A DNA stretch of 64,000 nt from a bacterium. GTDB taxonomy: Bacteria > Patescibacteriota > Minisyncoccia > UBA6257 > WO2-44-18. The stretch is taken from positions 32,589-96,588 of the forward strand of contig JAUYHP010000008.1 of NCBI GenBank assembly GCA_030689595.1, in the 5' to 3' direction. How positions within the stretch are numbered: the first letter of the stretch is position 1; each line of letters opens with the position of its first letter. Position numbers and translations under genes: made by a program. A model generated the notes under the pieces. The model ran no database searches. It was not told the origin of the DNA and was given only the letters and a program-made list of their open reading frames with translations. Positions 6,037 to 63,018 of the stretch are shown here, piece by piece.

Positions 6037-6558
6037 CTAAACTTGATCCTCTGGCGGCGAATTGTTGGTGCCGCCACTTTTATTTCTATAAAATAGCTTG
6101 GTGGAATATTCGTCTAAGATCCCAGGATTAAATAGTGAGCGGTGCTGGTAAAGATAGGCGAGGATAGCGGCAGGGATTATGGCTAAAAGGGTATTAGCTA
6201 GCAAGGCTATAAAGATAACAAAGCCATAAAGCCAAAGGGACCACCTTTGTTTTTTAACTATGCCATAGGCTATGGCTATGGAGGATAGTCCTATGAGAAT
6301 TCTTAAGACATAGAAAGACAGGGATACAGGTATGGGGTTTATTATGTCGGCGAAGGTGCTACCGATAATACTTAAGCCGCCTATCAACATGAAGGCAGCG
6401 ATTAACTGTATAGCTAGCGGCAAGTCGTGACCAGGCAAATTAAAGCGCAATTCTTTGACCACCTTTTCAGCCTCTTGGGTAACTTTAGTTTCGGTTTCGT
6501 TTGGTTCTATTTTAGGATCCATGATTATATTATATAATAATAGATGATCTATGAACAA
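6037..6558 (-). CDS. Membrane protein, hypothetical
   Basis: Three to four predicted TM helices. The real start is possibly the internal M (MDPKIEP). Confidence 0.4.
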   Translation of the reverse strand: MFIDHLLLYNIIMDPKIEPNETETKVTQEAEKVVKELRFNLPGHDLPLAIQLIAAFMLIGGLSIIGSTFADIINPIPVSLSFYVLRILIGLSSIAIAYGIVKKQRWSLWLYGFVIFIALLANTLLAIIPAAILAYLYQHRSLFNPGILDEYSTKLFYRNKSGGTNNSPPEDQV

Positions 6559-6841
6559 TATCGATTTAATGAAAGAAAAGTTAACGAGTGGGGCTAAGGC
6601 TGTTAGGCGTGAGATTCGTAAAAAAGTATTGACCTACATTGTCGCGGGGTTGGGGTTTGTGGCCGGTCTTGCGTGGAATGACGCCATTAGGTCGCTGATA
6701 AGCTTCTTGCTCCCTGATTTAGGGGATACCGTCAGCGCCAAAATAATATATGCGCTAGCGCTAACTTTGGTAGTGGCAGTAATCTTAATTTATTTGGATA
6801 GGCTGTTACGTAGCGGTGATTCTTCGCAGGATAAAAAATGA
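6551..6841 (+). CDS. Small membrane protein
   Basis: Two TM helices. Its stop overlaps the start of the next gene (ATGA). Confidence 0.4.
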   Translation: MNNIDLMKEKLTSGAKAVRREIRKKVLTYIVAGLGFVAGLAWNDAIRSLISFLLPDLGDTVSAKIIYALALTLVVAVILIYLDRLLRSGDSSQDKK

Positions 6842-30005: not shown

Positions 30006-30041
30006 CAACATTCTCACATTCTCGAGAATATGAGGTTGAGA
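30006..30041. repeat. Degenerate copy of the 36-bp palindromic element, followed by a second 18-bp palindrome (GTTGAGAGATCTCTCAAC)
   Basis: CAACATTCTCACATTCTCGAGAATaTGAGgtTGaG; the left arm is intact, and the right arm has about four mismatches relative to the copies at 60843 and 62971. Confidence 0.7.
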
Positions 30042-55477: not shown

Positions 55478-55536
55478 TATTGACGCCTTATATAAAATTT
55501 GCTAATCTGTTAGAAGCTCATTTCAAGGAGGTTATT

Positions 55537-55791
55537 ATGAGCCGAGAAAAGCTACGCAGAGCATTGTGCGGCCGTAAGATTATTTTTGTTAATGTTAATG
55601 ACGACGGGAATGATTTTATGACCTTAACCCTTGATGACGGCTCTAAAATTGTTTTCACTCATGGGGCAGATCCTGGTCAGCCAGTTTGGACCAAGATTGT
55701 TAAACGTAACCTCGATGAGCATGATGATTATGTTTGTACTGATGAGTTGTGGTCTACCAGCGGTGGCAGTGGGCGCGTAGGGATGCTTTGA
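55537..55791 (+). CDS. Small hypothetical protein, third gene of the operon
   Basis: AAGGAGG RBS before the ATG at 55537; 84 aa. Confidence 0.4.
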   Translation: MSREKLRRALCGRKIIFVNVNDDGNDFMTLTLDDGSKIVFTHGADPGQPVWTKIVKRNLDEHDDYVCTDELWSTSGGSGRVGML

Positions 55792-56659: not shown

Positions 56660-56842
56660 TAAAAAATTATTAAGAAATTAATCTATTTAGCCATTAAGTA
56701 ATAAATAAATTGTAGTACGTAGCAGTCGTTAAGTACAGGATGTTGTTGTGCGTGATGCTAAAATTTTAGAAGACGCTAACACGGCCTTAAAGGATGTGTC
56801 TATTAAAGGAGTCGTTTATTATATACTCCGCGGACACAGATT

Positions 56843-56903
56843 AGCGCTGCTTTCACATGTGAAAGCAGCGCTGCTTGACGTATTGATGGGTTATTGTTAT
56901 CAT
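56843..56903 (+). promoter_or_regulatory. 30-bp perfect palindrome abutting a promoter-like -35/-10 pair
   Basis: AGCGCTGCTTTCACATGTGAAAGCAGCGCT (56843-56872), immediately followed by TTGACG, a 17-bp spacer, and TATCAT. Confidence 0.45.
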
Positions 56904-56947
56904 ATTCAGAAGTTCTTTGACGTTCACCTGATAAGGAGCATAGAGCG

Positions 56948-57106
56948 ATGAACAGAAAAACGCTGGACATGATTACCATTCTCGTTGCCTCTCTTGGCGT
57001 GTGTGTGGCACTTTTCATTATTGCCACCATGCCCGGCAATGAGACTGTAGGACTGTGTCTTATTGGGGGAGCCCTAACCGCGGCACTTCTCACGATACTG
57101 ATTTAG
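56948..57106 (+). CDS. Unannotated 52-aa two-TM hydrophobic peptide (toxin- or holin-like small protein)
   Basis: AGGAGC RBS and the ATG at 56948. The sequence is MNRKTLDMITILVASLGVCVALFIIATMPGNETVGLCLIGGALTAALLTILI. It falls below the 60-aa cutoff of the ORF track. Confidence 0.4.
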   Translation: MNRKTLDMITILVASLGVCVALFIIATMPGNETVGLCLIGGALTAALLTILI

Positions 57107-57436
57107 ACGCGCAACACCAGAAAAAAGTTTTAAGGCGGCTGGCCATCTTCCCGATGGCAGCTAATGTCTAGTATTTAGGTGATTTTGACGATATTCAGAA
57201 GGCCAAGCTGGTTGCCGCTAAAAAAGGCACTGGTTGTACCGGAAGCGCTATTTTTGCCGCAGGTGTATATGACCATGCGGGTAAACAGATCCATTTCTTT
57301 CGCCGTAGACCGTCTACAATTGCTAAGGATTAAGCTTGATAAATATAGCCGCCATCTTTATTAATAAAGTTGGCGGTTTTTTCTTTTTACGCATTTATCA
57401 ACAGGGTAGGGCTACCAAATATTTGCTCGATATAAT

Positions 57437-57468
57437 AAAGTGAGTGTAAGGGATATTATACTCACTTT
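57437..57468. other. 12-6-12 inverted repeat, candidate tyrosine-recombinase core site
   Basis: AAGTGAGTGTAA-GGGATA-TTATACTCACTT, with 11 of 12 positions matching between arms, 75 bp upstream of the recombinase gene. Confidence 0.4.
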
Positions 57469-57542
57469 GGTATATGTGAGAAAATAATGGTAAAATTGGT
57501 AAAAAGCACTCCCCTAACACTATTTTGTAGAAATTATCAATT

Positions 57543-58514
57543 ATGACAAAAGCTGACAGCGATAATAAAAAAGTTACAATTCTTCCTCATCTAGATGACT
57601 TTTTATTACACCTACAGAGTAATAACTATTCACCCAAAACCGTATATAATTACGAACGCGACCTAATAGTATTTGATGGCTTCCTACAGGATGACCTAGG
57701 CCTAAAAGACTTCCAAGATGCCTCAAAACAGGCTCTAGAACGGTATAAGGCGTATCTGATGTCTACTGACCGTAAAACAGCCCGTAAAACGCAAAATAAG
57801 GCCAATTTAGGGGCCTATTCACGCAACCGACACCTATCAGCCCTCAGGAGCTATCTTAAGTACTTAATTGACGGGGACTATAAGACCCCGATCGTCCCAG
57901 AGAACATAAAGCTAATCAAAACTGACAAAAAGATAGCCAAAGTGGCCGAGCTGCAAGACTTAATCAAATTGATTGAATCCCCCACCAAATTTGAAAAAAA
58001 TCCAATCATAGCTAAGCGCAATCGCGCCATGTTAGAAGTTTTATTTGCTACCGGTTTACGTATTTCCGAATTAGTTAATCTCAAAAAAAATCAGATCGAT
58101 AGGGAAGGCAAGATTTTTGTTTTGGGCAAAGGCAAAAAAGAAAGATTTGTTTATTTGACCCCTAGAGCCATAAAATATTTAAAAATATATTTAACCGAAC
58201 GCAACGATGACTCCCCTCACCTATTCATTTCTTATCGCGGCAAAAGAGCGCCAACGCAAGATCATCATGTGTCGCCAAATTATTTACAAGAAAAAATAAA
58301 AAAATACCGAGAGATTCTTGGCATCAATGTGCCAACTAGCGCCCACTCACTCCGCCACGGCTTTGCCACCTATCTGGCCGAAAAAGGCGCCAGCCCTGCC
58401 GCCATTCAAATACTTTTGGGTCACGAGTCTTTAGACACTACCACTCGCTATGTCCACGCCTCGCATCGCTTCGCCAAAAAAACTCACCAGAAATTTCATC
58501 CACTGAAAGATTAA
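57543..58514 (+). CDS. Tyrosine site-specific recombinase (XerC/XerD/integrase family)
   Basis: C-terminal HSLRHGFAT...LLGHESLDTTTRYVH (R-H-R-Y catalytic set), and N-terminal SAM-like core-binding domain. Confidence 0.85.
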   Translation: MTKADSDNKKVTILPHLDDFLLHLQSNNYSPKTVYNYERDLIVFDGFLQDDLGLKDFQDASKQALERYKAYLMSTDRKTARKTQNKANLGAYSRNRHLSALRSYLKYLIDGDYKTPIVPENIKLIKTDKKIAKVAELQDLIKLIESPTKFEKNPIIAKRNRAMLEVLFATGLRISELVNLKKNQIDREGKIFVLGKGKKERFVYLTPRAIKYLKIYLTERNDDSPHLFISYRGKRAPTQDHHVSPNYLQEKIKKYREILGINVPTSAHSLRHGFATYLAEKGASPAAIQILLGHESLDTTTRYVHASHRFAKKTHQKFHPLKD

Positions 58515-58580: not shown

Positions 58581-58690
58581 TTGATGCTACTTGGCCGAGG
58601 TTGTCATCAGAAACAAGCTCAACCAGTGCCGTTTCTGGTGCCCCTTCTGGAGCACGACGACACCTGCCCACTGCTCCACCGCCTTTCCTG

Positions 58691-58795
58691 TCTGCCAGGC
58701 AAGGCCGAGGAACTGAACGACATCCCCGCCAGCTTTCTGCCAGGCAAGGCCGAGGCCCTGCACGGCATCCGCACTAGCACTCTGCCAGGCCATGA
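58691..58795. repeat. GC-rich 45-bp tandem repeat (about 2.3 copies)
   Basis: CTGCCAGGCAAGGCCGAGG recurs at 58691 and 58736, and a partial copy at 58781. Local GC is about 60%, against a roughly 42% background. Confidence 0.6.
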
Positions 58796-58901
58796 CTACC
58801 TCCAATACAACGGTGGACAGTGAAGTGATTAAACTTTGTTTAGGTACTGGGGCTAGTATATCATAAATATGTGAGGTTTGTCAAGGGGGACAAGTATTAA
58901 C

Positions 58902-60409: not shown

Positions 60410-61417
60410 TTATCCGTGTCGGATCTCCATCACGTCCCCATCCTCAGCGACATATTCTTTGCCTTCGATTCTTAAAAAGCCCTTTTGGCGCGCTTGTGCC
60501 CAAGAACCGACTTCTAATAATTTTTGCCAATTTACAACCTCGGCTCGGATAAACTTCTTTTCAAAATCAGTATGGATAACTCCGGCGGCTTGCGGCGCTT
60601 TACTCCCCTGTCTGATTGTCCAGGCCCTGGTCTCATCTTTGCCAGTAGTGAAGAAGCTTATGAGCCCCAAGATCTCATACGACTTTTTGATTAGGGCCGA
60701 AAGATCTACGGATTGTGATAGGTCAGCAACTATATAATCGGCTCCAGAAGTTTTAATTTTTTCTATTAATTCTGGTGGCACATCGCCTTCTTGGCCATTT
60801 AATAAATACAGCTGTTTTTTAGTGGTCAAAAGGCTAAGACCCAACATTCTCACATTCTCGAGAATGTGAGAATGTTGCCACAAAGGTTCGCCCTTTTCTA
60901 AAAGCGACCTGGTCTCCCGTATGGTCTCTAAATCTTTCTTGGCTTGTTTATCGCCCGTCTTGGCCTCGCCCTCAACTCGCTTTAAAACTTTTTCAACGGT
61001 ATCCAAGTCTTTAAGAGCCAGCTCGGTATTGATTATTTCCATGTCCCTAATTGGATCAACTGAATTTTCTACATGAATAATCTCGCCGCTTTGAAAACAG
61101 CGCAAGACCATGATTATGGCATCAACCTCTCTAATGTGTGATAAAAACTGGTTGCCCAAACCTTCGCCTTTATTGGCCCCCCTAACTAAACCCGCAATGT
61201 CATAGAATTCTACAACCGCAGGGATTTTTTTGGCCGATTGGCTAAGCTCTGCCAATTTATCCACTCGCTCATCAGGCACAGGCACTATGCCGATATTGGG
61301 GTCAATGGTGGCAAATGGATAATTGGCAATATTAATCTCCAAATCTGTTATAGCCTTAAAAAGCGTCGATTTCCCGACGTTTGGCAGCCCGACTATACCG
61401 ATTGAAATATTAGCCAT
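60410..61417 (-). CDS. ychF: Ribosome-binding ATPase YchF, carrying an in-frame 36-bp palindromic insert
   Basis: [15 protein letters not shown]1 motif and a TGS-like C-terminus. Codons [13 protein letters not shown] are encoded exactly by the palindrome at 60843-60878. Confidence 0.85.
60843..60878. repeat. 36-bp perfect palindrome, intragenic copy
   Basis: CAACATTCTCACATTCTCGAGAATGTGAGAATGTTG. Confidence 0.9.
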
Positions 61418-62970: not shown

Positions 62971-63018
62971 CCCACACAACATTCTCACATTCTCGAGAAT
63001 GTGAGAATGTTGTGTGGG
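62971..63018. repeat. 48-bp perfect palindrome (the 36-bp element extended by 6 bp on each side), preceded by a GGGGGT...ACCCCC hairpin
   Basis: CCCACACAACATTCTCACATTCTCGAGAATGTGAGAATGTTGTGTGGG, in the gdh upstream region. Confidence 0.9.

Follow-up and report, generated by a model that had tools for sequence, protein, structure and literature searches.

Class II holins and pinholins, of which S21 68 of phage 21 is an example, are small proteins with two membrane helices and a hydrophilic, charged C-terminal domain. Type I toxins of the Hok, TisB, Fst, Ldr and Ibs type are small hydrophobic peptides with one helix and are accompanied by an antisense RNA. In streptococci the recombination site difSL is found immediately upstream of the xerS gene (PMC1914069). 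The locus described here lies in a stretch of 64,000 nucleotides (nt) of contig JAUYHP010000008.1, from a Patescibacteria-like genome; the whole of this stretch is referred to as the window, and its numbering is used throughout. The locus comprises a gene for a membrane peptide of 52 amino acids (aa), located at 56948-57106 on the + strand, close to a dif-like site and an xer-like gene. Judged from comparison with its relatives, the 52-codon open reading frame (ORF) is a genuine conserved gene that is under purifying selection and encodes a two-helix membrane peptide, a tail-less member of a family of seven.

The peptide contains two hydrophobic stretches and its AlphaFold2 model is a helical hairpin with helices at residues 3-27 and 32-51 (predicted local distance difference test score, pLDDT, 78), in agreement with the two hydrophobic helices described in the initial annotation of this stretch. 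The Shine-Dalgarno sequence AAGGAG is found at 56933-56938 (+ strand), 9 nt 5' of the ATG, so the ribosome-binding site and the ORF about 45 nt past a promoter-like site are located as that annotation had them. Six relatives of 51-66 aa, with E-values from 1e-10 to 1e-30 and 47-77% identity, were obtained when 5.8 billion proteins were searched by word index and 1.84 billion representatives were scanned in full with HMMER. Together with the window copy they make up the seven sequences of the family obtained in those searches, an unnamed family (P0001, P0002 and P0004-P0008). The sense frame is free of stops in all seven members and a purine-rich, Shine-Dalgarno-like site precedes the ATG in every one of them. 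The ratio of nonsynonymous to synonymous polymorphism (pN/pS) of the relatives against the window copy is 0.26-0.62. The closest relative, on contig L004 (77% amino acid identity), differs from the window copy at 9, 3 and 23 sites in codon positions 1, 2 and 3, with a ratio of nonsynonymous to synonymous substitution rates (dN/dS) of 0.13. The only indel between these two genes is 3 nt long and in frame, and the last nine codons contain synonymous changes only. Conservation and purifying selection, which the initial annotation had left to be checked, are both borne out by these comparisons. The expectation that standard annotation would miss the peptide was mistaken, as the 52-aa ORF and the 67-aa ORF in front of it are both called as genes in an identical public contig (L001).

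The two helices are separated by an invariant G-N-E-T-x-G turn, in which residues G30, N31, E32, T33 and G35 are the same in all sequences of the 7-sequence alignment. A charged C-terminal tail (P/L-T-R-N-x-x-K-K-G...) is present in five of the seven members; it is absent from the window copy and, naturally, from the member on contig L007. No family in Pfam, NCBIfam, PHROG or PADLOC matches the peptide, no match was found among defence-system models, and the fold comparison of the hairpin model gave nothing better than E = 3. The phage, plasmid, IMG/VR and JGI metagenome collections, including 50,697 phage records, contained no relative. DNA and protein comparisons with the phage and plasmid collections gave no match either, leaving an origin there unsupported. 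The window copy is a new member, and in effect the first description, of a rare family of small membrane peptides.

The relatives are found in several types of context. In L004, L008 and L009 the peptide gene, whose product is here the 63-aa form, is the first in an array of closely packed tiny genes, many of which overlap. One or two unrelated small genes lie between it and the gene of a second conserved peptide of 44 aa (L004 617-787, L008 969-1103 and L009 819-953). The 44-aa peptide consists of one helix with a basic tail (...LNLALDSYLYRESCKRDWQRWKRHVR); no known family matches it, and the window contains no copy. The layout in these three contigs is thus one of conserved ends and a variable middle, the small genes of the middle being mutually unrelated. 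At the end of the L004 contig, after the array, there is a stretch matching a hairpin-plus-T-run sequence of L005. The arrays of L004, L008 and L009 look like mobile or phage-like DNA. The L005 copy is found between ComEC-like and HicB-like genes, a chromosomal-looking context. On its 3' side it has a remnant of the start of the next gene together with the hairpin-plus-T-run stretch, and the copy therefore looks like a deletion derivative. The peptide module of L005 (8001-8562) is directly upstream of the HicB-like antitoxin gene, which has no HicA partner, and the module may have replaced or disrupted hicA. The first 21 positions of L009 are Illumina adapter (TACACGACGCTCTTCCGATCT) and not biological; because this contig begins with adapter and has 35 nt of real upstream sequence, the GCGCTG...CAGCGC hairpin located there allows no conclusion.

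The member on L007 is a solitary, tail-less copy of 51 aa with a promoter match TTGACA-17-TAATAT (10 of 12 positions), a GGAGG sequence and a terminator-like hairpin. It is bracketed by a 20-nt imperfect direct repeat (6433-6452 and 6742-6761, 309 nt apart) that was equalled by one of 300 shuffles. This repeat may be the trace of an insertion of the gene as a mini-cassette.

The window copy is, like that of L007, a solitary one, and its surroundings point to a foreign origin. The sole DNA homology to the relatives, as found by blastn against L004-L007, is confined to 56927-57127 (+ strand) and covers the last codons of the upstream gene of the donor, the Shine-Dalgarno sequence, the ORF and a relic of the tail. 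The homology continues about 20 nt beyond the TAG of the window copy (codon 53), in place of which the tailed relatives have a sense codon. At 57107-57133 (+ strand), after the TAG, the frame can be read as TRNTRKKF*, a relic that matches the family tail P-T-R-N-x-x-K-K-G. As the tail is still readable past the TAG, the window copy has lost it through a nonsense mutation. The codon usage score of the peptide ORF is low (0.05), compared with 0.18 +/- 0.085 for in-frame genes of the genome and -0.27 +/- 0.16 for out-of-frame sequence, and its GC content at third codon positions (GC3) is 0.52, compared with 0.41 +/- 0.03 for the genes of the genome.

The flanking DNA on both sides is of another kind. 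The 67-aa ORF at 56748-56951 (+ strand) is probably a chimera, in which the first 55 codons are host-like (score 0.14) and the last approximately 12 codons come from the inserted piece. Its stop codon overlaps the start of the peptide gene (ATGA), and its end, ...VHLIRS, resembles the ...VRLVRS* with which the ORF before the L008 peptide gene terminates. This likeness indicates that the incoming piece carried the tail end of a donor gene. On the other side, an open frame of 54 codons without ATG, GTG or TTG is found at 57172-57335 (+ strand), also with host-like codon usage (0.20). The two host-like parts are taken to be the 5' and 3' halves of one gene, designated gene X. Two copies of a 24-nt imperfect direct repeat, 19 of 24 positions being identical, are found at 56889-56912 and 57178-57201 (both + strand); the left copy contains the -10 hexamer of the promoter-like site, and the match was equalled by one of 300 shuffles of the flanks. 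When 56913-57201 (289 nt) is removed, the coding pieces with host-like usage come to lie in one continuous frame. The product is an ORF of 98 aa with a GTG start, an AGGA ribosome-binding site and a terminator-like hairpin behind it. The candidate uninterrupted gene X would read ...LLDVLMGYCYHIQKAKLVAAKKGTGC... or ...GDFDDIQK..., followed by the terminator at 57349. This intrinsic-terminator-like hairpin with a T run (57349-57388, + strand, CCGCCATCTTTATTAATAAAGTTGGCGG) would end any + strand transcript of the block. Foreign DNA of about 290 nt thus appears to have split the small orphan gene X, the insertion being deduced from this arrangement.

The large protein search returned no homologue of the 67-aa ORF or of gene X other than the ORF itself, and no domain was found in it. 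A kinase relic was considered for gene X, since the joined 98 aa gave matches to Phos_pyr_kin (E = 0.015) and to the C-terminal part of GHMP homoserine kinase (E = 0.49). These were regarded as noise because they represent two different folds, the halves alone match nothing relevant and the large search returned the ORF only. A search of the gap for non-coding RNA gave no Rfam family at gathering score.

The cassette site was compared with the corresponding region of two related genomes, L002 and L003 (the latter a Patescibacteria metagenome-assembled genome), with 76-80% amino acid identity in the neighbouring nuclease. The order of the backbone is kept in both: a 423-aa protein, a 155-aa protein, an ATPase resembling the coupling protein of type IV secretion systems (T4SS), a PD-(D/E)XK nuclease, xer and map, with adk as well in L002. 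The genes that L002 and L003 carry between the nuclease and xer are other than those of the window. From this synteny the cassette site is a strain-variable spot between the PD-(D/E)XK nuclease gene and the dif-like site with xer. The N-terminus of the peptide, MNRKTLD, has a likeness to NKKTLD of a 158-aa protein found at the same spot in L002; this was judged to be due to chance and is not common to the L003 homologue.

The right edge of the variable spot is conserved. It is formed by the dif-like site TGAGTGTAA-GGGATA-TTATACTCA at 57441-57464 (no strand assigned), which has a 9-6-9 architecture with inverted arms and a 6-nt spacer. The 24-nt core is identical in the three genomes (L002 4222-4245 and L003 2717-2740), the arms extend to approximately 57432-57473, and the site is about 30-80 nt upstream of the xer-like gene in all three. 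The gene itself (57543-58514, + strand) encodes a XerC/D-like tyrosine recombinase (Phage_integrase, 9e-34). On the evidence of its synteny in L002 and L003 it is a chromosomal backbone gene and not the integrase of a mobile element. The cumulative GC skew has its peak at 54-58 kb, where gene orientation converges. The chromosome terminus is probably located here, with dif and xer forming a module similar to xerS/difSL.

Two further observations were made in this neighbourhood. Between xer and map, 58590-58830 has a GC content of 61%, compared with approximately 42% for the genome, and contains two 45-nt tandem copies (58688-58777). The stretch is absent from L002, where the gap between xer and map is 150 nt, and has no match in Rfam; a further insertion of foreign DNA beside the terminus is probable. 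Between the genes of the T4SS-coupling-like ATPase and the PD-(D/E)XK nuclease there is an ORF of 103 aa (55480-55791) with host-like codon usage, for which tblastn gave no match in either L002 or L003 and which hit no family; it may be a second small variable gene of the neighbourhood.

The perfect 30-bp palindrome that the initial annotation placed beside a near-consensus TTGACG-17-TATCAT is present at 56843-56872 (no strand assigned). It has no spacer (AGCGCTGCTTTCACA followed directly by TGTGAAAGCAGCGCT) and is single-copy in the 64-kb window. Its arm is 15 nt; among 100 64-kb sequences simulated with a Markov-1 model, the longest arms were 8.2 nt on average and at most 11 nt. As single-stranded DNA the palindrome folds with -16.1 kcal/mol (z = -5.7). 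The palindrome is real and beyond chance. It lies in frame within the 67-aa ORF, where it is translated as LALLSHVKAAL. The sigma-70-like promoter match follows after a gap of 2 nt and extends over 56875-56903 (+ strand), with TTGACG at 56875-56880, a spacer of 17 nt and TATCAT at 56898-56903. It agrees with the consensus in 10 of 12 positions, has a TG extension one base 5' of TATCAT and predicts a transcription start near 56910. Matches of such quality are expected by chance about 13 times per strand in 64 kb, or about 0.9 times with the TG extension; the chance of one 45 nt before a given ATG is roughly 1% or less. The promoter match and the Shine-Dalgarno sequence could express the 52-aa ORF, and expression is plausible on these signals.

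The palindrome and the promoter match are both found in the 5' half of the split gene X, outside the cassette that is homologous to the relatives. Neither the palindrome nor the window promoter sequence occurs at any of the six relatives' loci, and the palindrome is also missing from viral contigs. From its position the palindrome is part of the flanking DNA rather than of the peptide cassette, and a role as operator is unproven.

A second family of repeated perfect palindromes was noted in the window at 62971-63018 (48 bp) and 60842-60877 (36 bp), with an imperfect copy at 30006-30034. Each arm consists of two tandem ACATTCTC octamers, and 0.03 matches to the core are expected by chance. The 36-bp palindrome is in frame inside the ychF GTPase gene, and the 48-bp palindrome and the imperfect copy are upstream of the gdh and YkuD-transpeptidase genes. 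A promoter scan detected no promoter-like site beside the palindromes of this family; an apparent parallel, with TTGACG abutting the window's other palindromes, was not confirmed by the scan and was dropped. The 36-bp and 48-bp palindromes suggest that this genome is given to long perfect palindromes, which need not be accompanied by promoters.

The reading considered to have a little better than an even chance of being correct is that the 52-codon ORF is a genuine gene of a rare family, present as a stray, shortened copy in the split gene X, and that it is transcribed and translated into a membrane-active accessory protein. A piece of about 290 nt bearing the peptide gene alone would have entered a Patescibacteria-like genome and split the orphan gene X in the variable spot near the dif-like site and xer, and a later mutation to TAG would have removed the charged tail. 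Transcription of the peptide gene would proceed from TTGACG-17-TATCAT, in the 5' half of gene X just before the junction, or by read-through, as far as the terminator at 57349. Translation would start from the gene's own AAGGAG or through coupling at the ATGA overlap. The peptide would then insert into the membrane with both ends in the cytoplasm, a topology predicted from the positive charges found at both ends. Its function may be that of a membrane-active accessory protein of mobile-element origin, either holin- or antiholin-like or a small toxin or immunity protein. The part of this reading demonstrated by the comparisons with relatives and related genomes is a conserved, selected gene for a predicted two-helix peptide, its foreign origin, its truncation and its location in a variable spot by a dif-like site and xer.

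Several points weigh against this reading as a whole. Expression is predicted from sequence signals, and the function of the peptide from size, topology and context only, with no family, fold or phage match. No homologue of gene X and no empty site with the gene uninterrupted were found, so the insertion model depends on one genome. For a target-site duplication it is unusual that the direct repeats agree in only 19 of 24 positions, and L005, another solitary copy, has no bracketing direct repeats. A dead relic would also account for the nonsense mutation and for the absence of every operon partner.

It is possible, although unlikely, that the window copy is such a relic: a fragment of a mobile operon that has decayed after insertion, the promoter match and the palindrome being incidental to a broken gene. 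The nonsense codon does cut off the tail, all operon partners including the 44-aa peptide are missing, the surrounding block is a patchwork of gene fragments and the spot is not conserved in L002 or L003. However, both helices, the invariant turn, the start codon and the Shine-Dalgarno sequence are intact, and a member that is naturally tail-less, with 51 aa, has its own promoter match and terminator. The placement of the promoter match is improbable by chance, and an identical sequence was recovered from an independent sample.

A less probable explanation, and a rather doubtful one, is that of the initial annotation, in which the palindrome is a repressor operator that keeps a strong promoter shut and the peptide is a type I or II toxin or a holin. 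The palindrome, far beyond chance and 2 nt before the -35 hexamer, the well-placed promoter match and the small size and two membrane helices of the peptide are all in keeping with it, as are the charged tail of most relatives, which is like that of class II holins, and the scattered, unrelated contexts of the family, which are like those of selfish genes. As a guard of the promoter, however, the palindrome is poorly placed: it spans approximately -67 to -38, with its centre near -53 relative to the predicted start, and so lies 5' of the -35 hexamer and leaves the promoter core uncovered. Palindrome and promoter match are absent from the six relatives and outside the homologous segment, and beside the equal promoter match (10 of 12) of the solitary L007 copy there is no long palindrome of a comparable kind. 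A search for the cognate repressor or antisense RNA that had been suggested found no DNA-binding or regulator gene adjacent to the palindrome and promoter match, no additional half-sites above chance in the 64-kb window, no minus-strand promoter-like site in 56900-57450 and no Rfam antitoxin RNA above gathering score. A structured leader is also missing, the predicted transcript folding like shuffled sequence (z = -0.14) with the Shine-Dalgarno sequence weakly paired and not sequestered. Since the palindrome and the promoter match are inside the 67-aa ORF, a transcript from this promoter cannot encode that ORF, which excludes the layout of a type II toxin-antitoxin system. No endolysin or phage hallmark was found in the window or in L004-L009, several of which are contigs of 0.8-1.8 kb in which the context is partly visible. 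The peptide matches no holin or toxin family, and the tail is lost in the window copy. What stands of the initial annotation is a real, conserved membrane-peptide gene with a well-placed promoter match and Shine-Dalgarno sequence, while operator control by the palindrome is unsupported.

A more speculative extension, to which only a small probability is given, is that the peptide gene and its repeats of approximately 20-24 nt form a minimal mobile cassette which inserts into Patescibacteria-like genes with a membrane-active "addiction" peptide as its sole cargo, the 30-bp palindrome having been recruited as an operator in the window. The direct repeats of L007 and of the window differ in sequence and are 309 and 289 nt apart, respectively.

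The palindrome might instead be a dif or attachment site for the neighbouring tyrosine recombinase, as the sites of these enzymes are inverted repeats and the palindrome is 670 nt from the Xer-like gene, where the GC skew turns and gene orientation converges. This is very improbable: the palindrome has no asymmetric spacer and is absent from L002 and L003, and the better, conserved 9-6-9 site at 57441-57464, identical in both and always just upstream of xer, removes it as a recombinase site. Least probable of all, to the point of being effectively refuted, is that the real gene is a 96-aa minus-strand ORF (56803-57093) with the 52-aa frame as its shadow, for this ORF, open in the window, L004, L006 and L008 and with a similar pN/pS because its third codon positions are shared with the sense frame, contains stops in L005, L007 and L009, varies between 54 and 107 aa with no conserved start, has poor codon usage (-0.02) and shows 3 and 9 differences at its codon positions 1 and 2, the reverse of the usual order.

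If the favoured reading of a stray copy of a genuine gene is true, one member and one insertion event are added to a family of very small membrane proteins that had not been described before and that seems to be linked with mobile DNA in uncultivated, Patescibacteria-like bacteria. Little is known of the phages, plasmids and small proteins of these bacteria. The case would show how the gene interrupted by a foreign mini-gene can provide it with a plausible promoter match, and the variable spot beside the dif-like site and xer would be a landing place for foreign DNA. The finding neither opens nor settles a long-standing question; a role as toxin or holin, if true, would raise its interest.

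In comparison with described systems, the family is like the class II holins in its size of approximately 50-70 aa, its two predicted helices, whose ends may both be cytoplasmic, its short polar turn, and its packing among tiny genes. The lysine- and arginine-rich C-terminal tail of five of the seven members is a further likeness, one in which the window copy has no part. The family is unlike these holins in having no sequence or profile match to the holin families of Pfam, PHROG or NCBIfam and no conserved dual-start motif. An unregulated holin would not tolerate a good promoter, whereas two chromosomal copies are found behind good promoter matches.

Likeness to the type I toxins is found in the hydrophobic peptide of less than 60 aa, the patchy distribution, the ease with which such genes are overlooked and the strong promoter-like element. 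The two helices and the strictly conserved polar turn set the family apart from them, and the NCBIfam Hok model gave 11.5 bits with one relative, compared with a cut-off of 73.

The integrative mobile elements exploiting Xer (IMEX) and the pdif modules of Acinetobacter (PMC6744903, PMC12907356) resemble the locus in that a short foreign piece with one gene lies approximately 300 nt from a dif-like site and that the content varies between related genomes. Unlike in those modules, no second dif-like site flanks the piece in the window, where one match is found, and the bracketing repeats are not of Xer type and differ between the window and L007. For XerS/difSL the comparison concerns the site at 57441-57464 and not the palindrome, and L002 has a second, distant Xer-like gene; the likeness lies in a dif-like inverted repeat placed directly upstream of the recombinase gene in three related genomes.

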